Shown here piece by piece: positions 19,601-29,832 of a stretch of DNA of 32,000 bases; the stretch's first letter is position 1, and every line of letters begins with the position of its first letter. The stretch is taken from contig NC_009925.1 of NCBI RefSeq assembly GCF_000018105.1, positions 5,040,001 to 5,072,000 of the forward strand. Reading direction: 5' to 3'. This DNA comes from Acaryochloris marina MBIC11017 (GTDB lineage Bacteria; Cyanobacteriota; Cyanobacteriia; Thermosynechococcales; Thermosynechococcaceae). The notes beneath the pieces were generated by a model. It saw nothing but the letters and a program-made list of their open reading frames with translations. It was not told the origin of the DNA and searched no databases. The translations under genes were made by a program, and so were the position numbers.

Positions 19601-21718
19601 ATGTTGAGTATCAGCATCAAAGTTCTTCCGCTAACGTCGGCTACATTGATTTTGCTGTCTCAATACACCCCTGCGATCGCAGCGTCAACCTGGATGCCGG
19701 AGTTTGATCCGGGCAAATCAGTCTATGTTGATCCAGCTTTGTCAGGGCATCCTATTGCCCCCTTCCAGTTCTCTCCCAAATTGGAGACTCAGCTCTCCCA
19801 GGAATCCAAAGAAGGTCTGCGCTATTTTGTGGTGGCGGCCCAACAAGGTAATGAGCCTATCCCTTCAGGTAAGCCCTTGGGAGTGGCAAAAGTCGATGAG
19901 CTGTTGTCAATCTGGACCACTCGCCCAGGCTTTCCCCGAGAGAACTATGTTGTCATCTTCTGGGTTCGTAAGCGTGTGAGTGTCTATAAAGGCTCAGTAG
20001 GAGTTAATGCGGGTAAAGCTGGTCGGGAAGCAGGTGTGCTTCCAGCACGGCTCTCCAGTCCCACTGGACTGGTCATTCCGGCGTTAAAAGCCAATATGCC
20101 TGCCGATCCTGAAGGGGCAATGATAGATATCGTCACCAATATTGAAAATCAAGTTACATCCTACCGAGAAACACAGGTCCGGCGTCAAAGAGCTGCTAAA
20201 GCCCGGCAAGAGCAGGAGCGGGTTGCTGCCCAAGAACGGGAGCAGTTTAACCAAAATCTTCAGTCCTGGTTGCAAGCATTCGTCAATGCGCTCCCATTTG
20301 TGGGAGGTATGGGTGGAATTGGCTTCATCCTGATGAATGGACGGCGGCGGAAAGCCAAGGCTCAAAAGCTAATTAATGAATGGTCAACCCTCTGCCAAAA
20401 TACCTCAAATCTTTATTTAGAGGTAGAAAATAATGAGCTACCGAAACTCCAGGCACTCCCCTTAGACATTGATGAGATGCTCAAGGCCAAGTTTGACCTA
20501 CTAGTGCATCGCTTAGCAGAATTTATGGCCTGGTCATCGGTTGCCAGCGAATTAGTCACCCAAGCTCAAGCCTTGTTAAACAAAGGGAAGTCTCGTCAAG
20601 CGATCTACACTCTAACGAAAGACAGTGTGATCGTTGAAAACAACAAAGTCCCAGTGGTTCTCGCCAGTTTACGTGGAGGGATCGATATTGCCCAAACGTT
20701 GATGGCTGATGAGCTTAAAAGTGGCCTAAACGATCAATGGCAATCCATAAAATCGGCTTTGAGCGAACTGCTCTCTATTCAACAAAGCTATTTGGAACTA
20801 TCCCAGAAAGATATATTCACAGTCCTACTGAAGCGTCCAGAAGAAATTTTAGACAAGCATATTCCAGAACTTAATCGTTATGGACTCCATCAAGGGGCCT
20901 TTGTGAATTCATCTCATGGGTTTGAGAACTGGGTAAGCGAATATGGGCAACTGATTCAACAGACTGAACTAGAATTCACATCCTCGCAAATCGTGAATTC
21001 AGTAGAGAACCAAAAGAAAGCAATTGAAATGCTAGATCGACTGGCATCTCGTATTCAACAAGCCGTCATGGATAAGAGAAAATGCGAGAAGGTGACCCAC
21101 CAGAATTTTTCTGGCAAGAAACTGGCAGAAAAAATTGCACAAGCTTCGACAGCCCTTGAGCAAGTAAAGACCCACTTCCCCCATGAGCCATACCTGCGAT
21201 ATGAAGCAAATGTGGAAAAAGCCTTAGCCGTGAAGAACGAGCAGTTTCCCCAGAACCACGCTCAATTTATTCAGGCTTATCAACAGAAGTATTTTAGTGA
21301 TGCTCTCAAGCGACTAGAGCAGACTCGCACTCTAGAAAAAGATTGGATGATGACCCTTACCCGAATTGTTGACTATCCAGTGAGACTTCAGGAAAAGAAA
21401 CGAATGCTGGAGAGGCAGCTAGAAAGCATTCAGCGCCGCAACCAAGCGTTGCAAAGTCGGCATCAGGTAGAGTTTGGCACCCTGGCTTGGAATTCATCAT
21501 CTCTGGACAGTCTGGAGAGCAGAATCGATGCACTTGAATATTCTGTCTCACGAGCAGAGGACGAACAACAGCGGGAATCATCTTCAAGCAGCTCTCTCTG
21601 GTCTGACGATAGCTCTTGGAACTCAAGTAGTGGATCGGATTTTAGTAGTTTTAGTGGTAGTGACTACGGTAGTAGCGGCAGCGATTATGGTAGTGGCAGT
21701 GGGGGTGGAGATTATTAA
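19601..21718 (+). CDS. Signal peptide + TPM-like domain + TM helix + long helical domain + Ser/Gly/Asp/Tyr tail (hypothetical)
   Basis: 705 aa. There is a signal-like N-terminus (LTSATLILLSQYTPAIAAS), and residues about 70-190 loosely resemble a TPM (YgcG-type) domain. One TM helix (ALPFVGGMGGIGFILM) is followed by RRRKAKAQK. The C-terminus is ...SSSGSDFSSFSGSDYGSSGSDYGSGSGGGDY. Confidence 0.75.
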   Translation: MLSISIKVLPLTSATLILLSQYTPAIAASTWMPEFDPGKSVYVDPALSGHPIAPFQFSPKLETQLSQESKEGLRYFVVAAQQGNEPIPSGKPLGVAKVDELLSIWTTRPGFPRENYVVIFWVRKRVSVYKGSVGVNAGKAGREAGVLPARLSSPTGLVIPALKANMPADPEGAMIDIVTNIENQVTSYRETQVRRQRAAKARQEQERVAAQEREQFNQNLQSWLQAFVNALPFVGGMGGIGFILMNGRRRKAKAQKLINEWSTLCQNTSNLYLEVENNELPKLQALPLDIDEMLKAKFDLLVHRLAEFMAWSSVASELVTQAQALLNKGKSRQAIYTLTKDSVIVENNKVPVVLASLRGGIDIAQTLMADELKSGLNDQWQSIKSALSELLSIQQSYLELSQKDIFTVLLKRPEEILDKHIPELNRYGLHQGAFVNSSHGFENWVSEYGQLIQQTELEFTSSQIVNSVENQKKAIEMLDRLASRIQQAVMDKRKCEKVTHQNFSGKKLAEKIAQASTALEQVKTHFPHEPYLRYEANVEKALAVKNEQFPQNHAQFIQAYQQKYFSDALKRLEQTRTLEKDWMMTLTRIVDYPVRLQEKKRMLERQLESIQRRNQALQSRHQVEFGTLAWNSSSLDSLESRIDALEYSVSRAEDEQQRESSSSSSLWSDDSSWNSSSGSDFSSFSGSDYGSSGSDYGSGSGGGDY

Positions 21719-22407: not shown

Positions 22408-22884
22408 ATGGTCCAATACACCCTGAAAGAAGACCCAGAAGCAGTGATCAAGATTCCTGGTAAGGACTCCAAAAAGGCTCGCGAAAAAGCTATGAATCAA
22501 CTGATGGACTTGATGGATAGTGGAAAACTTAAAACCTCCCTCAATCAAGGCTTTAGTCCCAATGACTTCATTGAAGTCCAGACGACGGTTCCAACTAAGC
22601 CGTCTCCCCAGGAAGATGAAGTTGCTCAAGCGGTGCAAATCTTAAATCTCCTTGCCTCTCTCAAGTTGAAGATGCAGGAGTTGCAACAACAGGCCTTGAA
22701 AACTCGGGCAATTGTCGATTTACTATTCTCGGATGAACCCATTTCAGAAGAAGACGTTTTGCAGTTGAAAGAAGGGTTTAAAGTGCTGAAAAAATTTGCT
22801 CAAGCCAATATTCAATATCAGGAAACCCGGAAACGAGCTGAATCGGCAAGAGCTATTTTAGATCGGGCTTTGCAATCTAAGTAA
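22408..22884 (+). CDS. Hypothetical protein
   Basis: A 158-aa ATG-initiated ORF, charged and helical. No family recognised. Confidence 0.6.
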   Translation: MVQYTLKEDPEAVIKIPGKDSKKAREKAMNQLMDLMDSGKLKTSLNQGFSPNDFIEVQTTVPTKPSPQEDEVAQAVQILNLLASLKLKMQELQQQALKTRAIVDLLFSDEPISEEDVLQLKEGFKVLKKFAQANIQYQETRKRAESARAILDRALQSK

Positions 22885-22952
22885 AGGCTGGATAGGTACC
22901 GAGTATTGCGCCTCAATCATCCTGGGTCTGCTGGCAAGGCGACTGGCCGTTG

Positions 22953-23129
22953 TTAACGAGAAACTTCTTCACCCATCAGGGATGCGGCAATCGTCGCGAA
23001 TTGATTGATGCTCAGAGAAATACGTCCTTCCTGTGGGTAGGTGATGAGTTGAGTGGTGGTTAGACTCTCTGTCAGTTGCCTAATCATTTTTATGGGCACG
23101 TTGCGGTCTTGTTCACCGTAGAATCCAGA
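22953..23129 (-). pseudogene. Orphan C-terminal fragment of an alpha/beta hydrolase (58 codons + stop)
   Basis: My own translation of the minus strand is SGFYGEQDRNVPIKMIRQLTESLTTTQLITYPQEGRISLSINQFATIAASLMGEEVSR*. This is the G..D..vP (catalytic Asp) to GH (catalytic His, here GR) segment of alpha/beta hydrolases. A TGA lies directly upstream and there is no start. It is below the ORF-track length cut-off. Confidence 0.65.
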
Positions 23130-23721
23130 TCAAGGATATTTGAATTTCTTCTAAATTGAAGTCCCACTCATGGGTATATAAATACTTCTTTGGCAGTTTT
23201 GAAGAAGTTATCTATTTATCTTGCATTATCTTGAGCACATTTTTAAATAAACTTAATAACCAAAACAACACCAAAGAGCACAAAAAAGCATTTTTATTCT
23301 GATTCTTTACTTATAGGCTTCTATATAGATAGAAGCCCAATTAGATGCTGCGTTGGTGTTGAGGATTCTGTTAGTTATACTTCTGAGAGTGAATTTTGCC
23401 AAATTATTCGATTATCAATAGCATTTATCCCCTACTAACTCTGGGTTCTAGTCTAATAAACATCATGCAGCGCGATGCTCAGGAATAAGTATTGTGTAAG
23501 CGCTTTAAATTTCTGTTCGCGCCCCTGATGACATGGTTGCTAGGAGATGAGGGATGCAACCAGCTCATAACAAAGGACTCTAATTTATTGCATAAGTAAT
23601 TTTGCTGTAGAGCTATATCTAGATACGGATGAACCAATCAAGTGGATTGCTGTAAACACAAGAAGGGAAATTTGAGTAAGCGCTGCGCCAAAGATTTTGC
23701 ACTTAATAGTCAACTAAAAAT

Positions 23722-24765
23722 ATGCTATATCTTGAGCCCAAATATATAGATGCAGTAAAAAATGTTTCACAAGCTGCTGACTTATACTCTCTTTTGCAAA
23801 ATGCGATCCAGCTTGAGCATTCAACTATTCCACCATACTTAACTGCAGCATATAGTCTGAAACCTGCAAACAGCGAAATAAGGCGAATCATAGCTAACAT
23901 TGCTGCAGAAGAAATGTTGCATATGGCAATTGTTGCAAATATACTTAATGCGATTGGTGGATCCCCACAAATTTCTATTCCGGAATTTATTCCAAAGTAT
24001 CCAACTACATTACCGATGGGCATCATTGGTGGATTAGAGGTTGGGTTAGAAAGATTCTCCAAAGACTTAGTAAAGAATAAGTTTATGGAAATTGAGCAAC
24101 CGGAGAATCCTATTTTCGAAGAAAATGATTCTACCTCAACTGGGGCTTCAAGTTCTGATCTCGTAACAATTGGCGACTTCTATCGGGAGATCATAAATAA
24201 AATAAGTGAACTTGGAGATGATATTTTTACTGGCGATCCTGAATTACAGGTTGTCATGGGTGCGGGATTTCCCATTAGTCAGCTCTTTCCAATTACAAAT
24301 AGTGATACAGCAATTAGATCTCTTGAGTGGATTATTAAAGAGGGTGAAGGGACAACTAGACTACCCTTCGATGATGAAGATGAGCCAGCTCATTATTATC
24401 AATTTGAGGCAATTTTTGAAGGCCGCCAGCTTGATCCAGATGCAGAAGAAGAAGAAGAAGGGTATCCTTACACAGGTCGAGAGATTCGCTTCGATCCCTC
24501 AGAAGTCTGGGACTTTCCTAGTAACCAAAAAGCAGCTAACTATCCAGACGGTTCAGAAGAACGCAGGAGAGTCGATCAATTTAACCTAGCTTATTCAAAT
24601 ATTCTACGAGTCTTACAAGAGGCCTTCAATGGTAAACCAGAAGAAATAGGTGAATCAGTTTTCCTGATGGGAGGACTTAGAAGATTTGCACGAGATGTTG
24701 TTTCTAGGACTGATCCAAGGACAAACATGAAATGCGGGCTTACCTTTGAATTTATTGAAGAGTGA
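23722..24765 (+). CDS. Ferritin-like domain protein (VioB/RebD-type ferritin-like fold)
   Basis: 347 aa. LLQNAIQLEHSTIPPYLTAAYSL and AAEEMLHMAIVANILNAIGG (E...ExxH) are typical of the Pfam Ferritin-like family. There is an acidic insert (DPDAEEEEEGY). First gene of the low-GC operon. Confidence 0.8.
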   Translation: MLYLEPKYIDAVKNVSQAADLYSLLQNAIQLEHSTIPPYLTAAYSLKPANSEIRRIIANIAAEEMLHMAIVANILNAIGGSPQISIPEFIPKYPTTLPMGIIGGLEVGLERFSKDLVKNKFMEIEQPENPIFEENDSTSTGASSSDLVTIGDFYREIINKISELGDDIFTGDPELQVVMGAGFPISQLFPITNSDTAIRSLEWIIKEGEGTTRLPFDDEDEPAHYYQFEAIFEGRQLDPDAEEEEEGYPYTGREIRFDPSEVWDFPSNQKAANYPDGSEERRRVDQFNLAYSNILRVLQEAFNGKPEEIGESVFLMGGLRRFARDVVSRTDPRTNMKCGLTFEFIEE

Positions 24766-24836
24766 GAAATGCATATTTTTCGCAATTATTCTAGATGTCA
24801 ACAACACAAATAATGCAATCAGAATAGGAGAAAATA

Positions 24837-26042
24837 ATGGCTTTCCCGAGCGATTTTAGCAATGTTGAAATTTGCAAGATTCATCCTGCAATTGGTATTG
24901 CTAGAGTATCTAATAATGACGATTTCTATATTTTCGGAAATGATCCAGGAAATTACAAATCAGGTGGCTTAATAAAGAGGCAGGCTGTTCAATTTAGAAT
25001 TTTTGTCTATGGAGAAAATAATGTCGGTCTTGGAGAGTTGACACCTCAGGTCATGAGTGATCTCGGTATTACAGCAATTTGGTCTGCTAAGGTAGCAAAT
25101 CGAAAGATTGCTAGATTGGAAGGTACCCCATTAAGCGGCAATGAGTTTGTCATCTCTGCTGAGGCCACATCAAACGATGCAAATAGTGGACAACTTGTTG
25201 GTTCGTTACCAGACTTTGATGAAGGCTCTGCAATACCTTTAGGCCAAATTACACGTGAAGGCGTGTTCATCCCTCCAAAAGGTGGTGTCTATAGGAAATC
25301 ATCTGGTGTTGAAATTGAGCCTTATCCTGCATTATCTGCACAAGTTGCTGACACAAGTTGTGATGGTTCAGTATCAGTGAACCTCACTATAGATGGGGCT
25401 GGACAAATTGAAGTTCTACCTGCATGTATCATAGTTGCTCCACAAGACTTCTCTCCTGATACAAATGAAGGATATACACTAAATGAATATCTAAAGGATG
25501 CTTTAGATATTCCACTGAAAAGAGAGTTGCCACCTGTTGACAATATACATAATCAGACTGCACGTGAAATTGATGAAGAAGCTCTTAAAACTGGAAGTGC
25601 TGATTTTGCTCCTGGATATGAAGTTTCATTAGGTGGGCGTGGTGAAGTTTTAGATATTAGAAATCTTGTTTATAGAAGTCAAGATGATCCTAGGATTGAT
25701 CCTCGAGAAGTAAGAATTCTCTACAAGAATAAACAAAACAAGTTAGAGCCTCGTGGAGCAGTACCAGGACAGTTGACTAGTGGTTTATGTTCTTCATGGC
25801 AAGGTGATTTTACAGCTTGTGTGGGCTATTGGGTAGAACATTTGCCACCAAACGCCTTCTTGGATGAGGACGCTTCAACAGAAGTTCGTGTTTTCAGAAA
25901 GCAATATTCTGATACATCTTCATCAGCTGAAGAATTGCGAACAGGTGAAGAATTTAATATAGGAGTAGATAAAGTTGGTATCGTTCGTTTGAGAGAAAGT
26001 CGAAAAGTAGAAACAGAACGTGATCCAGGAGATGATATCTAA
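24837..26042 (+). CDS. Short LodA/GoxA-like protein (putative cysteine-tryptophylquinone oxidase)
   Basis: 401 aa with AGGAG 8 nt upstream. N-terminal blocks are CKIHPAIGIARVSN, IKRQAVQFRIFVYG, IWSAKVANRK, CDGSVSV and APQDFSPD. The C-terminal block is LCSSWQGDFTACVGYWVEHLPP. These match the LodA N-terminal domain and the WQADFxxC...YWWPP quinone-site region as I remember them. Confidence 0.7.
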   Translation: MAFPSDFSNVEICKIHPAIGIARVSNNDDFYIFGNDPGNYKSGGLIKRQAVQFRIFVYGENNVGLGELTPQVMSDLGITAIWSAKVANRKIARLEGTPLSGNEFVISAEATSNDANSGQLVGSLPDFDEGSAIPLGQITREGVFIPPKGGVYRKSSGVEIEPYPALSAQVADTSCDGSVSVNLTIDGAGQIEVLPACIIVAPQDFSPDTNEGYTLNEYLKDALDIPLKRELPPVDNIHNQTAREIDEEALKTGSADFAPGYEVSLGGRGEVLDIRNLVYRSQDDPRIDPREVRILYKNKQNKLEPRGAVPGQLTSGLCSSWQGDFTACVGYWVEHLPPNAFLDEDASTEVRVFRKQYSDTSSSAEELRTGEEFNIGVDKVGIVRLRESRKVETERDPGDDI

Positions 26043-26152
26043 GCTTAGAATCAATCAGTTGCTAATCCTTTACTGGAGAATCTTTCTTAGGCCATGGATA
26101 GGTGATTGCAACTGATTCTCCTTCGATACTAATCATTGATTGTAATCAGGCA

Positions 26153-27514
26153 ATGATACAAATCATGTCCCAATACTCCTCTAAGTTAAAGATGCCGAAT
26201 GTACATCTGTTTCGAGCAGAAGAGCATTCTATGCTGCTATCTATTGAGCAAGGTTCAATATATGAAATCGATGATATTTACGCTGAGATGCTCGATCGAT
26301 GGATGGAATTTGGTGAAGTAGAAAGAGTGCATCAAGTATTATCGGCAAAGGGAATACATCTGAATTCAGTTCCTCCTGAGGCTCCACCTAAATCTATTCC
26401 AATTCATGCACTCTCTCTAGCCATAGCTCAAAAATGTAATCTTGGTTGCACCTACTGCTATGCCCATCAAGGTAGCTTTGGTGGCAATGAAGGTAGTATG
26501 TCTTTTGAGGTCGCGAGGAATTCTATTGATCTCTTGTTGAAAGGAACAGAATCTGGAGAAACAGTTTCCTTAGCCTATTTAGGAGGAGAACCTTTAGCCA
26601 ATCGTTCTGTTTTGCAGAAAACAACAGAATACACTATTGCCAAAGCTTCTTCAGTGGGAATTAAGACAAACTTCTCATTGACAACGAATGGAACATTGTT
26701 GACTGTTGAAGATGCAGAGTTTTTTAATAATCATGGCTTTTCTGTCACGATTAGCATTGATGGAAATCAAGAAAAACATGATTTCCTAAGACCATTTAAA
26801 TCAGGAAAGGGAAGTTACAAAACGGTCATAGAAAAAGTAAAACTTTTATTAGATATTCCTCACCGACGTTGTCGAGTATCCGCAAGAGTTACAGTGACAC
26901 CTGAAAACTTGTGTTTGGAAGAGACTCTGGACAAACTCGTTTCACTCGGCTTTGATAATGTCATGTTCTCTCCAGTTCTGAAATCACCAACTGGCCTACA
27001 TCAAATGGGAGAATTTGAATTTGAAGTGCTGCTAAATCAAATGATAGAGTGTGGCCAAAAATTTGAGCAGAATTTTGAAGATCACAAGATCTATCCCTTT
27101 GCAAATATACTGAACACGCTTCAACGAATACATCATTATAGATGTGACGCTTACCCCTGTGGCGCAGGAGGAGCCTATTTGGGTGTTTCTTCAAAGGGAG
27201 ACTTGTATGCTTGTCATCGATTTGTTGATGATGCTCAAGGTTCAATGGGAAATATCGTAGATGGTGTTGATCCTGCTAAGCAAGAGAATTGGCTGGCGGC
27301 CAGAAATGTGCATACTCAGGAACCATGCAAGGCTTGCTGGGCACGATACTTGTGTGGAGGCGGTTGTCATCATGAATCAATTTACAGAGGTCGACCTGCC
27401 TGCGATTACATTCGCGGTTGGTTGCATTACTGTTTAGGCGTATATGTCAAGCTTCTTAAGATTAATCCTTCACTCCTGGATCAGATTTTGAACAACCAAT
27501 CTGTTTCTGGATAG
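26153..27514 (+). CDS. Radical SAM / SPASM-domain enzyme (anSME/QhpD-like maturase)
   Basis: CNLGCTYC (CxxxCxxC, nt 26435-26458), GGEPL, and a SPASM-type Cys cluster: CDAYPCGAGG...YACHRF...CKACWARYLCGGGCHH. The ORF is open from GTG 26102. The first ATGs are at 26153 and about 26192, so the start is uncertain. Confidence 0.9.
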   Translation: MIQIMSQYSSKLKMPNVHLFRAEEHSMLLSIEQGSIYEIDDIYAEMLDRWMEFGEVERVHQVLSAKGIHLNSVPPEAPPKSIPIHALSLAIAQKCNLGCTYCYAHQGSFGGNEGSMSFEVARNSIDLLLKGTESGETVSLAYLGGEPLANRSVLQKTTEYTIAKASSVGIKTNFSLTTNGTLLTVEDAEFFNNHGFSVTISIDGNQEKHDFLRPFKSGKGSYKTVIEKVKLLLDIPHRRCRVSARVTVTPENLCLEETLDKLVSLGFDNVMFSPVLKSPTGLHQMGEFEFEVLLNQMIECGQKFEQNFEDHKIYPFANILNTLQRIHHYRCDAYPCGAGGAYLGVSSKGDLYACHRFVDDAQGSMGNIVDGVDPAKQENWLAARNVHTQEPCKACWARYLCGGGCHHESIYRGRPACDYIRGWLHYCLGVYVKLLKINPSLLDQILNNQSVSG

Positions 27515-27522
27515 CTATCGAA

Positions 27523-28944
27523 ATGGGAACCAAGGACCAAACCACTTTTGATGTCTGTGTGATCGGTGGTGGTCCTGCAGGCTCAGTAGTATCCCATCGT
27601 TTGGCATCGTTAGGATATAAAGTATGCATAATTGAATCCCAAAAGTTCCCTCGACCTAACCATATTGGGGCTTCACTACTTCCCAGTACTTTGCCTTTAT
27701 TAGATTGTATAGGAGTACGAGAGTCTGTTGAAAATACGGGATTTCTCCTCCACGAGCGCACAATTGTTTGGTGGTCAGAGACTTTTCCTATATATAAAAA
27801 TCAACATGAGCAGCCTGGATTCCATGTGGATCGTGGCCAATTCGATCAATTACTTTTGCAGAATGCCAAAGAGAATGGAGTTGAAGTCCATCAACCAGCT
27901 CATGCATTTCGTCCGGAAAGGATCAAGACTCAGAAATGGCAGATTCGCATCCGTCAAGATGGAATGCAAAGAACGATACTATCTAAAATAGTAGTTGATG
28001 CATCTGGTGGGCGAAGTCTAGTTCCCGGACGCCGGATTCTAGCATCAGCTCCTCTTCTAGCTTTGTATGCCTATTGGAAAGGCACAAATTTTCAGACAAT
28101 TGAAGCACGTATTGAAGCGGGAGAAAGTGAGTGGTTTTGGTATGCACCTTTAAGTCAGAACAAAGCAGTTACTGCAGTTTTTCTTGATCCCAGTTGCTTA
28201 TCTCTAAACTCAAAACAAGGAATTGAAAATATATATCACAAGTTACTGAATCGATTCAGATTGTTCCCTGCTAAATTTATCAAAGGTATTGAGGGTAAAG
28301 TAAAAATATGTGATGCATCAACTCGGTATGCAGAGAACCCTATAGGAGACAGCTTTATTCGAATTGGAGATGCCTGCTTATGTTTAGACCCATTATCTTC
28401 TCAAGGTATTCAGTCAGCAGTAGCTTCAGGCTTGCAAGCTGCAATTATCATCAATACTTTTCTCAAATATCCTGAAGATACAGAATTGGCAATTTCCTTT
28501 TATAATGCTCGCCAAAAAGAAAAAAGAAACGAATACATAACAAAAACGGCTAGTTTTTATCAACAAGTCGCTGCTGTTCGTAATAAACTATTTTGGCATC
28601 AGAGGGCTACTTTTCCTGAAGGTCAATTAGCTCCTATTCTTAAGACAAAAAGTTTCGATGGTAATTGTAAAATTCAACTATCAGATCATGCATATATGAA
28701 CTCTACACCCATAATCGAAGGAAATAGAATTATCTCTAAGCATGCTTTATATCATGATATGTTATCTCGTCCAATAGCATTTGTTGGTGGAGTGGAAATA
28801 GTACCTTTGTTGAGAAAAGTTAGTCCAGGGACAACAATACAAGATATCTTACAGGTTTGGTCGAAGAATTTGCCAGTTGAGCTTAGCTATAATATTATGG
28901 CTTGGCTTTGGATTCGTAAAATCATTGTTCCTTTTCATCTATGA
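27523..28944 (+). CDS. FAD-dependent oxidoreductase/monooxygenase (LodB/QhpG/halogenase-like fold)
   Basis: 473 aa. FDVCVIGGGPAGSVVSHRLASLGYKVCIIE (GxGxxG), KFPRPNHIGASLLP, EWFWYAPL and IRIGDACLCLDPLSSQGIQSA (GD...DP..S.G). The start is 8 nt after the radical-SAM stop. Confidence 0.85.
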   Translation: MGTKDQTTFDVCVIGGGPAGSVVSHRLASLGYKVCIIESQKFPRPNHIGASLLPSTLPLLDCIGVRESVENTGFLLHERTIVWWSETFPIYKNQHEQPGFHVDRGQFDQLLLQNAKENGVEVHQPAHAFRPERIKTQKWQIRIRQDGMQRTILSKIVVDASGGRSLVPGRRILASAPLLALYAYWKGTNFQTIEARIEAGESEWFWYAPLSQNKAVTAVFLDPSCLSLNSKQGIENIYHKLLNRFRLFPAKFIKGIEGKVKICDASTRYAENPIGDSFIRIGDACLCLDPLSSQGIQSAVASGLQAAIIINTFLKYPEDTELAISFYNARQKEKRNEYITKTASFYQQVAAVRNKLFWHQRATFPEGQLAPILKTKSFDGNCKIQLSDHAYMNSTPIIEGNRIISKHALYHDMLSRPIAFVGGVEIVPLLRKVSPGTTIQDILQVWSKNLPVELSYNIMAWLWIRKIIVPFHL

Positions 28945-29010
28945 TTGATACTCGATTCTCAGAGTTGATTTCTCAACAGAAACTAAAGTTACTGATTGAT
29001 GCGTAAGTAG

Positions 29011-29109
29011 TCAAATAAAATAGCCATAAATCATGGCTTCACTCGTTTCTGGATAGAGTTCGTAATCCTTCCCCAAACGACGATAGCGATTCAGGCAACT
29101 AAAGGTCGT
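29011..29109 (-). pseudogene. IS5-family transposase C-terminal remnant
   Basis: My own translation of the minus strand is TTFSCLNRYRRLGKDYELYPETSEAMIYGYFI*. This is the conserved C-terminus of IS5-group transposases (..W..R.RRL.KDYE..PETSEAMIY..). A TGA lies directly upstream, so only about 32 codons survive. Confidence 0.55.
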
Positions 29110-29184
29110 GCATCAAAAAAATGTGGGATCTCGATTTACAAAGGGTTTCAGTCTTTTTGGAGTATCTCCTGTAAGCCTTTAGTG

Positions 29185-29832
29185 TTAGATGCCTGAGCGA
29201 TTGTTACAGATTTTTTCACACTTTTCTAATGCACAACCGATAGACTCCATGCAACCCACCTGCGCTAGGGCTGTATAGTCTGCTGGGGGCAGTTGGTTCT
29301 TGAATCTAGCTAACACTTTTTCTGGATCACCCTTGAGTGACTGTGCCAGGAAGGATTGCCAAAGTTGGTAGAGTATCGGCACTCTCTTCATAAAGAAGAA
29401 CATTATGCGGCTCATTGGGGAAAGATCTTCAGCAAGATCCATCTGCCATGCCCCAGAAACAATAACAGCAGAATGGAGTCTTTCAGGCATCTTGGCGACA
29501 CAGACTGCGACATATCCACTGCCGCCAGACATACCCAAAACAGAAAATTTATCTAAATTGAGTGCATTGGCAAGACACTCTATATCATTGACCCAGTCGG
29601 AGAATCCTCGGTGCGGTTGAAAATCAGATTGCCCAAGCCCAGGACGATCGGGGGCAATCAGCCTCATCCCAGCTCGCTGAATGTTCTCATTGCCTAATAC
29701 CAATGGCTCTAAGCGACAGGAGGGAGAACCATGAAAATAGAAAACGGGATATCCCTGAGGATCACCATATTCAGCGTAGGCTAACTGTCGCTGATCCGGC
29801 AGGGTGAGAAAAGTGGTAATTTCCATGGTCAT
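29185..29832 (-). pseudogene. Alpha/beta hydrolase, N-terminal 215 codons (truncated; decayed continuation to about 29112)
   Basis: VFYFHGSPSCR (oxyanion HG) and VLGMSGGSGY (GxSxG nucleophile elbow) are present, but there is no Asp/His segment. After an A6 run (plus-strand T6 at 29211-29216) the +1 frame continues SVTIAQASNTKGLQEILQKD*NPL*IEIPHFF, which is hydrolase-like with two stops. The missing C-terminus is the fragment at 22953..23129. Confidence 0.75.

Follow-up and report, generated by a model that had tools for sequence, protein, structure and literature searches.

A four-gene cassette of Acaryochloris marina joins a short LodA-like protein to maturation enzymes of the quinohemoprotein amine dehydrogenase type and a ferritin-like protein

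Quinohemoprotein amine dehydrogenase (QHNDH), LodA and GoxA are the only enzymes listed as carrying cysteine tryptophylquinone (CTQ) in a 2025 review, in which the QHNDH and the LodA/GoxA routes are treated as distinct (PMC11951088). A cassette of four genes in Acaryochloris marina MBIC11017, located in a 32,000-nucleotide (nt) stretch (contig NC_009925.1, positions 5,040,001 to 5,072,000; hereafter the window), raises the question of what a LodA-like protein does in the company of maturation enzymes of the QHNDH type. We find that the cassette is a hybrid, combining a LodA-fold protein with QHNDH-type maturases and with an active-site motif like that of QhpC, the QHNDH gamma subunit. By position in the window, its open reading frames (ORFs) are:

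23722..24765, + strand: ORF1, 347 amino acids (aa), a PF12902 ferritin-like protein from the lineage of the VioB C-terminal domain and the predicted dimetal partner of ORF2
24837..26042, + strand: ORF2, 401 aa, a short LodA/GoxA-like protein, predicted CTQ-bearing catalytic subunit
26102..27514, + strand: ORF3, 470 aa from a GTG start, a radical S-adenosylmethionine (radical-SAM)/SPASM enzyme of the QhpD/PapB (Cys-Asp/Glu thioether) clade
27523..28944, + strand: ORF4, 473 aa, a QhpG-type flavin adenine dinucleotide (FAD) monooxygenase, predicted peptidyl-Trp dihydroxylase

The genes are all co-directional and occupy 23722-28944, with intergenic gaps of 71, 59 and 8 nt, the second of which becomes 110 nt if ORF3 starts at 26153. 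An earlier note made from the letters of the window alone (the original prediction) had described four + strand ORFs with these gaps, and the coordinates were confirmed exactly, as were the peptide blocks (LEHSTIPPYL, AAEEMLHM, WQGDFTAC..YW, CNLGCTYC and GGGPAG). That the four genes are real follows from the hundreds of homologues of each and from an order that is repeated in unrelated genomes. The note had also seen no hairpin terminator between them, with which a simple consensus scan of the window agrees: it found no + strand terminator-like site inside the cassette, the sole one being at 29280, outside it.

Is ORF2 truly a relative of LodA? The LodA-family assignment holds at the level of sequence profile and of fold. 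ORF2 passes the LodA_N model (PF17990) over residues 16-94 with 47.9 bits against a gathering score of 26.3, its LodA_C match (PF18417) reaches 17.7 bits against a gathering score of 25, and many of its close homologues carry a precomputed PF18417 match. A profile of 24 ORF2-family members matches LodA with an E value of 1e-11 in three collinear blocks. The AlphaFold (AF2) model of ORF2, with a mean predicted local distance difference test score (pLDDT) of 87.9 and a predicted template modelling score (pTM) of 0.91, returned GoxA or LodA as all of its top 48 PDB matches in Foldseek (E 3e-11 to 9e-9, probability 1.00), the TMq values of only 0.37-0.64 being due to GoxA/LodA targets that are twice as long. 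NCBI names the protein 'LodA/GoxA family CTQ-dependent oxidase'. As its scores against the NCBIfam equivalog models are 29.9 for LodA (cutoff 600) and 35.8 for GoxA (cutoff 750), ORF2 is not an orthologue of either; it is a distinct half-length subfamily related to them at the family level, with invariant residues spread along the entire chain.

The Foldseek match that follows the 48 GoxA/LodA structures is 1jju_A, the QHNDH alpha subunit (E 5.5e-4, probability 1.00, 207 columns). Sequence homology between ORF2 and QhpA was rejected (hhalign probability 0.5%) and the match stays a weak lead; as judged from the model, a beta-sandwich domain common to both or some deeper relationship may lie behind the likeness.

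Where in ORF2 would a cofactor be built? One block of the family stands out:

25782..25847, + strand: ORF2 residues 316-337 (GLCSSWQGDFTACVGYWVEHLP), the predicted cofactor site

Across the family the block reads G-L-C318-S-x-W321-Q-x-D324-x3-C328-x3-W332-x4-P337, in which C318, W321, Q322, D324, C328, W332 and P337 are invariant in 24 sequences, and C318 and C328 are the only two invariant Cys residues of the family. Since ORF2 has two invariant Cys and ORF1 has none, ORF2 is the only plausible protein substrate in the cassette; ORF1 had been considered as a radical-SAM substrate through its C-terminal KCGLTFEFIEE and was rejected, as the Cys is not conserved. D324 and C328 align with LodA Asp512 and Cys516, the latter being the CTQ residue. 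W332 is the sole invariant Trp downstream of C328 and shares its aromatic-W-x4-P context with the GoxA TRQ residue and with W43 of QhpC, and its assignment as the counterpart of LodA Trp581 is based on motif and profile alignment rather than on structure superposition. In the AF2 model C328 and W332 are placed at i and i+4 at the end of helix 325-331, with side chains able to face each other.

The same block leads to QhpC. We used an authentic QhpC from the qhp operon of Pseudomonas nitroreducens (L084:9404-9730; L numbers denote loci of our collection), the mature form of which reads ...N-L-C27-QPMEA-D33-LYA-C37-ADPC41W-W43-PAQV-P48-D49. In QhpC, CTQ is formed from Cys37 and Trp43; QhpD installs three thioethers, of which Cys27-Asp33 is one, and Asp33 serves as the conserved Asp of the active site (PMC8172795; PMC7876137). 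Aligning the ORF2 family with QhpC in hhalign equates C318 with C27, D324 with D33, C328 with C37, W332 with W43 and P337 with P48 (75.6% probability, E 2.4e-5, 25 columns), and the site layouts are L-C318-x5-D324-x3-C328-x3-W332-x4-P337 in ORF2 and C27-x5-D33-x3-C37-x5-W43-x4-P48 in QhpC. By analogy, the likely target of the radical-SAM enzyme is C318 with D324, the counterpart of QhpC Cys27-Asp33. Two other ways of finding a QhpC in the cassette were tried and discarded. Pfam detection of a QhpC domain in the C-terminus of ORF2 gave only the weak LodA_C match, and a hidden QhpC-like small gene was sought by listing every ORF of 20 aa or more in 22700-29300, none of which is conserved; related cassettes have no small gene inside them either.

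The Cys at C318 follows the radical-SAM enzyme from genome to genome. In a motif census of the fetched loci, 24 of 24 radical-SAM-linked proteins (22 of the short type, a Nostoc variant and a Mycetohabitans variant) have a Cys ten residues before the CTQ Cys (position -10), compared with 0 of 59 long LodA-like proteins without radical SAM, which carry Ala, Gly, Leu, Val or Ile at this position. The context of the quinone Trp is shared on both sides: the aromatic-W-x4-P pattern appears as WWPAQVPD in QhpC, as WWPAQRPD and FWPARVPN in long LodA-like proteins, as SW-TRQ-AANLP in the PDB sequence of GoxA and as YWVEHLP in ORF2. The similarity between QhpC and the long LodA-like proteins suggests that the CTQ segments of the QHNDH gamma subunit and of the LodA family are homologous, a relationship that we did not find stated in the accessible literature. 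In the Rhizobiales, Nostoc and Mycetohabitans subclades there is in addition a C-x-C...W-W...P-D arrangement, which resembles the second QhpC ring, Cys41-Asp49.

Five of the long LodA-like proteins without radical SAM (L038, L055, L060, L066 and L075) read WWPAQRPD or WWPSQRPD at the quinone Trp, near-identical to the WWPAQVPD of QhpC.

The enzymes that would act on this site are encoded by ORF3 and ORF4, the motifs of which are:

26435..26458, + strand: ORF3 C112-x3-C116-x2-C119, the radical-SAM cluster motif, aligning residue for residue with QhpD C112/C116/C119
27143..27403, + strand: ORF3 SPASM region with C353, C371, C409, C412, C418, C422 and C434, all seven aligning with QhpD Cys residues
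27565..27582, + strand: ORF4 G15-G-G-P-A-G20, the FAD-binding GxGxxG motif seen in the sequence, with FAD_binding_3 and DAO Pfam matches from residue 9-10

ORF3 had been described as a CxxxCxxC radical-SAM enzyme with a SPASM Cys cluster, and it keeps both the CX3CX2C motif and all seven SPASM Cys of QhpD. It matches Radical_SAM of Pfam with 66.6 bits, its best NCBIfam model is QhpD (TIGR03906, 322 bits, cutoff 453), followed by PapB at 286 with nif11 and SCIFF as further top models, and it shares 31% identity with an authentic QhpD encoded on a plasmid. The closest solved structure is the thioether synthase CteB (5wgg, 185 bits). QhpD is the best radical-SAM model in 9 of 10 cassette homologues, and the cutoff of 453 is never reached. 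Members of the QhpD/PapB clade specifically make bonds from Cys-S to Asp-C-beta or Glu-C-gamma (PMC11002830). Besides the GTG, ORF3 has alternative ATG starts at 26153, 26165 and 26192, and in most loci the homologue alignments start at residues 12-35; the true start is probably one of these ATGs (26153-26192).

ORF4 is the GxGxxG flavoprotein that the original prediction took it to be, and it passes the curated cutoff for QhpG (NF049967, 285.7 bits, cutoff 240), with 141 for LodB and 121 for GoxB (cutoffs 400). In ten cassette homologues QhpG is the best flavoprotein model in all ten and is above cutoff in eight. The PDB matches of ORF4 are CmlS (105 bits) and QhpG 7ctq (78 bits). In QHNDH, QhpG performs two hydroxylations on a Trp that is unmodified; the substrate of LodB and GoxB is instead a mono-hydroxy-Trp formed by autocatalysis (PMC7876137). 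The idea that a LodA-like protein is joined here by both kinds of maturase stands in so far as a radical-SAM enzyme and a flavoprotein are both present; it does not stand in respect of a separate LodB-type enzyme, both maturases being of the QHNDH type.

Is the association of the four genes conserved? The ORF2 family profile was scanned against one genome per GTDB species, giving 79 loci, and the four window proteins were compared by tblastn with 83 loci (the 79 and four fetched earlier). All 22 loci with a short (~400 aa) LodA-like protein have an ORF3-type radical-SAM gene (416-600 bits) and then an ORF4-type flavoprotein gene immediately downstream, and 18 of the 22 have an ORF1-type gene, so that the quartet of the original prediction recurs well beyond Acaryochloris. 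In contrast, radical SAM is found in 0 of 61 long LodA-like loci matched through the N-terminal domain only; these are classical long LodA-likes, mostly of actinomycetes, most of which are accompanied by a LodB-like flavoprotein alone. Cassettes of the short type were found in Cyanobacteria, Alpha- and Gammaproteobacteria, Verrucomicrobia, Acidobacteria (Thermoanaerobaculia), Deferribacteres, Planctomycetes and Bacteroidetes (Flavobacterium), about eight phyla in all. Plasmid-borne relatives were examined as loci in Nostoc and Mycetohabitans (Betaproteobacteria), those on Rhizobium, Bradyrhizobium and Embleya plasmids being tblastn matches only. An exhaustive profile search of 1.84 billion representatives returned 1,549 LodA_N-type proteins and only ~20 full-length short-type clusters (50% identity). 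The cassette is rare and phylogenetically scattered, and the conserved unit is these four genes only, the neighbours varying in every genome.

The variants of this architecture bear on ORF1. On a plasmid of Nostoc sp. UHCC 0302 (L085:5370-10211) a 631-aa protein fuses a CTQ-motif LodA_C segment (25.6 bits, above the gathering score) to PF12902; this fusion and a 544-aa ferritin-like protein with a weak match to the LodA mid-domain flank the ORF3-type radical-SAM gene. In Mycetohabitans endofungorum, also on a plasmid (L086:3120-9861), the LodA-like protein is divided between two chains, one of 478 aa with the N-domain and one of 300 aa with the motif; the ferritin-like gene is upstream and the radical-SAM and QhpG-type genes are downstream. 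A Rhizobiales clade has, in 4 of 4 loci, a different gene in the place of the ferritin-like one; its product is a dihaem cytochrome c of ~355 aa that carries a signal peptide and a pair of CxxCH motifs:

L001:8921-9988, L011:6875-7990, L015:6540-7988 and the matching ORF in L012: Rhizobiales-clade cytochrome c genes (haem motifs, for example, CNRCH and CTSCH)

That this upstream gene is a divergent ferritin-like gene was considered and rejected, as it has no match to the hidden Markov model of the ORF1 family; the cytochrome has no Pfam family above threshold.

ORF1 itself is ferritin-like, as had been proposed, with a PF12902 score of 248.9 bits against a gathering score of 22.3 and an AF2 model that is a helical bundle (pLDDT 86.8). 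It matches positions 663-816 of the VioB model with 26 bits (cutoff 1250). Its only significant PDB relative in Foldseek is 3hl1, a protein of no known function, after which come generic ferritins at E > 0.2. The family invariants are E32, H33, E63, E64, H67, E125, E209 and H224, and they include the putative metal site:

23908..23922, + strand: ORF1 E63-E64-M-L-H67 (ExxH), candidate metal ligands, conserved without exception in the family (20 of 20 members) and in the cassette (16 of 16)

By analogy with the ferritin-like fold, we infer that this motif binds metal. The spacing between the ORF1- and ORF2-type genes is often only ~10 nt in other genomes. Based on this spacing, the Nostoc fusion, the Mycetohabitans gene set and the cytochrome replacement in Rhizobiales, we argue that ORF1 works physically with the quinoprotein, and it looks more like a physical or redox partner than like a third maturase. 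As a dimetal protein and a dihaem cytochrome share a redox function, we favour for ORF1 a role as electron acceptor or oxidant, comparable to that of the QhpA haems or of MauG. This is the least secure part of our proposal, and our confidence in it is much lower than in the core mechanism.

Paralogues of ORF1 outside the cassette (~45% identity) directly follow genes for proteins of 646-662 aa that have no Pfam match and match VioB positions 513-609 weakly (L087:4796-8050, L088:5013-8041 and L089:4985-8041). Of the three cases examined, two (Nostoc NIES-4103 and Flavobacterium LS1R49) have the pair inside or next to an ebo cluster (EboA, TatD, UbiA, DHQS-like, phosphodiesterase), and the pair looks like a split VioB/StaD-like enzyme tied to ebo clusters.

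What would these proteins do together? The steps that follow, with the metal, the substrate and the cellular location, are predictions that build on the homology, fold, synteny, residue covariation and gene fusions described above. We propose that ORF3 abstracts hydrogen from the methylene carbon of D324, whereupon the C318-S-C thioether would form; that ORF4 would dihydroxylate W332, as QhpG does with unmodified Trp43; and that C328 would then add to the oxidised indole, yielding CTQ from C328 and W332. By analogy with QHNDH, we consider this core of the mechanism fairly probable. Mature ORF2 would oxidise a primary amine or an amino acid, with the substrate held as a Schiff base at the quinone and D324 serving as active-site acid/base, and ORF1, as a tightly coupled redox partner, might take electrons from the reduced cofactor and pass them to O2 or might perform the final oxidation of cofactor biogenesis. 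As inspection of the four protein sequences shows no obvious signal peptide, the enzyme appears to be cytoplasmic. In QHNDH, QhpD, QhpC and QhpG act as a ternary complex (PMC7876137), which fits the spacing of 8 nt between ORF3 and ORF4.

Several points weigh against this reading and are best taken together. The alignment with QhpC spans 25 columns only, and Pfam models find no QhpC-like domain in ORF2. D324 is conserved also in LodA and GoxA, which have no radical SAM, hence alone it is no sign of a crosslink, and C318 could form its thioether with a different acidic residue. The spacing of 4 between Cys and Trp in ORF2 is shorter than that of any solved CTQ enzyme (6 in QhpC, 15 in GoxA and 65 in LodA), and around residues 310-340 the AF2 confidence is moderate (71-87). 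As to the maturases, ORF3 is under the QhpD equivalog cutoff (322 against 453) with PapB scoring nearly as well, and ORF4 is only 24% identical to authentic QhpG and closer by pairwise score to the halogenase CmlS than to QhpG 7ctq. The Rhizobiales cytochrome is exported whereas the ORF2 homologue beside it has no signal peptide. For ORF1, the sole structural relative, 3hl1, gives no function, and the nearest paralogues (~45% identity) lie outside the cassette in split VioB-like pairs, pointing to small-molecule chemistry.

This last point opens an alternative in which ORF2, with or without a quinone, would turn an amino acid or amine into an imine or aldehyde, ORF1 would couple the product or oxidise it further in the manner of its VioB-domain relatives, and ORF3 and ORF4 would tailor this metabolite, and not ORF2, by forming C-S or C-C bonds and by hydroxylation or halogenation. 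The match of ORF1 to VioB 663-816, its UniRef name (iminophenyl-pyruvate dimer synthase domain protein) and the pairing of its paralogues with VioB-N-like proteins of 650 aa, two of three beside ebo clusters, speak for such a pathway, as do the best Pfam match of ORF4, which is Trp_halogenase, the annotation of its homologue in some genomes as tryptophan 7-halogenase, and the nonribosomal peptide synthetase (NRPS)-like, aminotransferase and phosphopantetheinyl transferase genes that adjoin the Leucothrix locus. Yet conservation is confined to the four genes, with other neighbours in every genome, 10 of 10 flavoproteins have QhpG as their top model, SPASM radical-SAM enzymes of the QhpD/PapB/SCIFF clade are known to act only on peptides and proteins, and the covariation of the ORF2 Cys with radical SAM (24/24 versus 0/59) is hard to explain with a metabolite as the substrate. 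We consider a small-molecule pathway unlikely; as it is compatible with ORF2 being a matured quinoprotein, it mainly concerns ORF1. [quoted passage not shown] In the biosynthesis of pyrroloquinoline quinone (PQQ) and of mycofactocin a radical-SAM/SPASM enzyme acts with oxygenases and the product is excised from a precursor, a logic that a radical-SAM/SPASM enzyme and oxygenases on a Cys/Trp/Asp-rich segment would resemble, and in Mycetohabitans the motif part is a separate protein of 300 aa. However, no protease or exporter is conserved in the cassette, ORF2 is a globular protein of 400 aa (pTM 0.91) with invariant residues along the whole chain, and its motif is embedded in the active-site region of the LodA fold, which in LodA and GoxA is protein-bound; release of a free cofactor seems to us very improbable.

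At the opposite end, ORF2 could be an ordinary LodA/LodB-type oxidase, with CTQ formed by autocatalysis and a flavoprotein, the radical-SAM and ferritin-like genes being passengers or generic Fe-S/iron helpers. ORF2 does keep the Asp/Cys/Trp triad of LodA, and a flavoprotein gene follows it as in all LodA-like genes (PMC4417212). Passengers would not be expected in 22 of 22 short-type loci from about eight phyla against 0 of 61 long-type loci, nor would the specific extra Cys of the short type, a flavoprotein of the QhpG rather than the LodB type, or fusions joining the ferritin-like domain to the CTQ module, and this explanation is strongly disfavoured, its probability being slight in our view. 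The maturation of ORF2 by ORF3 and ORF4 is our preferred reading.

How does a cassette matured in this way compare with known systems? It resembles QHNDH (qhpABCDEFG, with CTQ in the gamma subunit QhpC) in having genes for a QhpD-like radical-SAM/SPASM enzyme and a QhpG-type flavoprotein side by side, in the cofactor-segment layout L-C-x5-D-[LF]-x-A-C followed by aromatic-W-x4-P, in the predicted chemistry of Cys-Asp thioether, Trp dihydroxylation and CTQ, and, for the Rhizobiales variant, in a dihaem c-type cytochrome partner, which is unrelated to QhpA. Unlike QHNDH, it has no separate 9-kDa gamma subunit, the motif being inside a LodA-fold protein of 400 aa, and no leader peptide, QhpE protease, QhpF ABC exporter, QhpB beta-propeller or QhpA dihaem alpha subunit in the cassette or its flanks; one thioether is predicted in ORF2 compared with three in QhpC, a ferritin-like protein is present where QHNDH has haem, and the enzyme is apparently cytoplasmic. 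As QhpA, QhpB, QhpC, QhpE and QhpF are missing and ORF3 falls below the QhpD cutoff, the cassette is not a member of the qhp system.

With LodA and GoxA the cassette shares the fold, LodA_N, the WQxDxxxC block with the counterparts of Asp512 and Cys516, the aromatic-W-x4-P context (SW(TRQ)AANLP in GoxA) and a dedicated halogenase-like flavoprotein encoded downstream. It differs in the length of ORF2 (401 aa compared with 680-816 aa), the extra Cys at -10, the obligatory radical-SAM enzyme and ferritin-like partner, and a flavoprotein that is of the QhpG and not of the LodB/GoxB type. Campillo-Brocal et al. surveyed 168 LodA-like proteins in 2015 (PMC4417212); neither Acaryochloris nor Leucothrix is listed there, the entries examined are of 518-990 aa, there is no mention of radical SAM, and PF12902 genes are noted only beside fungal lodA-like genes. 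In that fungal group V, genes for a LodA-like protein, a LodB-like flavoprotein and a PF12902 ferritin-like protein lie close together, but the LodA-likes are of 574-636 aa, the genes are in opposite orientations, no radical SAM is reported and the group is uncharacterised (PMC4417212).

VioB, StaD and RebD (iminophenyl-pyruvate dimer and chromopyrrolic acid synthases) are related to the cassette through the homology of ORF1 to the C-terminal ferritin-like region of VioB, and VioB acts directly downstream of an amino-acid oxidase, VioA; ORF1 differs in that it has no N-terminal part of ~650 aa and that its partner oxidase is of the quinoprotein and not the flavoprotein type. Methylamine dehydrogenase with MauG, the tryptophan tryptophylquinone (TTQ) system, is likewise a tryptophylquinone enzyme whose maturation needs a dedicated metallo-oxidant, a role that by analogy the Rhizobiales dihaem cytochrome and dimetal ORF1 could play, although there is no sequence relationship and the cofactor predicted here is Cys-Trp and not Trp-Trp.

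The setting of the cassette in the Acaryochloris genome bears on how it came to be there. Its GC content is 0.395 compared with 0.486 in the rest of the window, and the GC content at third codon positions (GC3) is 0.22-0.32 in the four genes compared with 0.42-0.57 in ten other genes of the window, which bears out the AT-rich codon style, unlike that of the flanks, described in the original prediction. The flanking genes (DUF4112, two unknowns, an alpha/beta-hydrolase and Ldh/Mdh) were considered as members of the system and rejected, being unrelated and of normal GC3. Given this composition anomaly and the unrelated, compositionally normal flanks, the cassette looks like a horizontally acquired four-gene island, which we read as one operon. 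A search for island boundaries around it found no tRNAs and no meaningful flanking direct or inverted repeats. Upstream lies a further stretch of the same composition:

22885..23721, + strand: upstream intergenic region, 837 nt, GC 0.395, presumed promoter/leader

This non-coding stretch is unusually long and AT-rich, with promoter, regulatory region and island remnant as its candidate roles. Among its ORFs, which were inspected, none is conserved or has homologues, and it contains a single weak sigma-70-like site at 23396-23424. A riboswitch or other RNA element was considered for the region and rejected, as a scan of the whole window at Rfam gathering thresholds gave 0 matches.

At the downstream edge of the island, the alpha/beta-hydrolase ORF at 29185-29832 (- strand, 215 aa) covers positions 2-127 of a profile of 245 and may be a truncated gene marking the insertion boundary. 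Further upstream in the window, at 19601-21718 (+ strand), an ORF of 705 aa has an N-terminal hydrophobic signal-like segment and a Ser/Gly/Asp/Tyr-rich C-terminal tail (...SSSSSSLWSDDSSWNSSSGSDFSSFSGSDYGSSGSDYGSGSGGGDY), and no Pfam match.

Elsewhere, in Leucothrix mucor (L002/L003:2164-8371), genes for a class-III aminotransferase and for a 1360-aa AMP-binding/PP-binding protein (NRPS- or carboxylate-reductase-like) lie directly upstream of the cassette, both divergent, with a phosphopantetheinyl transferase gene on the + strand in the same stretch. Such neighbours might be a clue to an amine or aldehyde as substrate, but other loci do not share the arrangement.

The original prediction knew of no characterised system of this composition, and our search of the full-text literature available without subscription likewise found no description or characterisation of the cassette. 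The individual labels are already known, in that ORF2 has its automated name and ORF4 passes the NCBI model for QhpG; what is new is the combination, the QhpC-like motif and its covariation with radical SAM. Since the family is small and yet is spread over many phyla and plasmids, the cassette is probably a mobile metabolic trait. Having neither leader, protease nor exporter, it offers a simpler system of four genes and a single substrate protein in which to study the recognition of a folded protein by QhpD- and QhpG-type enzymes.

The cassette is predicted to represent a new class of CTQ enzyme, for which the C318-D324 crosslink is a sharply testable feature, and the ferritin-like partner, with its replacement by a dihaem cytochrome, points to an undescribed coupling of a protein quinone to a metal centre. 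Carrying this further, we suggest, only tentatively and with more doubt than conviction, that the family is a third class bridging the QHNDH gamma subunit and LodA/GoxA in evolution: a cytoplasmic 'quino-diiron' oxidase of amines or amino acids made of a single chain, in which one QhpD-type thioether would cage the CTQ and the electrons would pass to a ferritin-like dimetal subunit that would reduce O2, possibly to water and not to H2O2, with a dihaem cytochrome c in its place in the sister clade. The near identity of WWPAQVPD in QhpC and WWPAQRPD in some long LodA-like proteins suggests a common origin of the two CTQ lineages in an ancestral cofactor module. If the bridge is real, CTQ sites would have arisen once, and the LodA family would later have lost the radical-SAM step.

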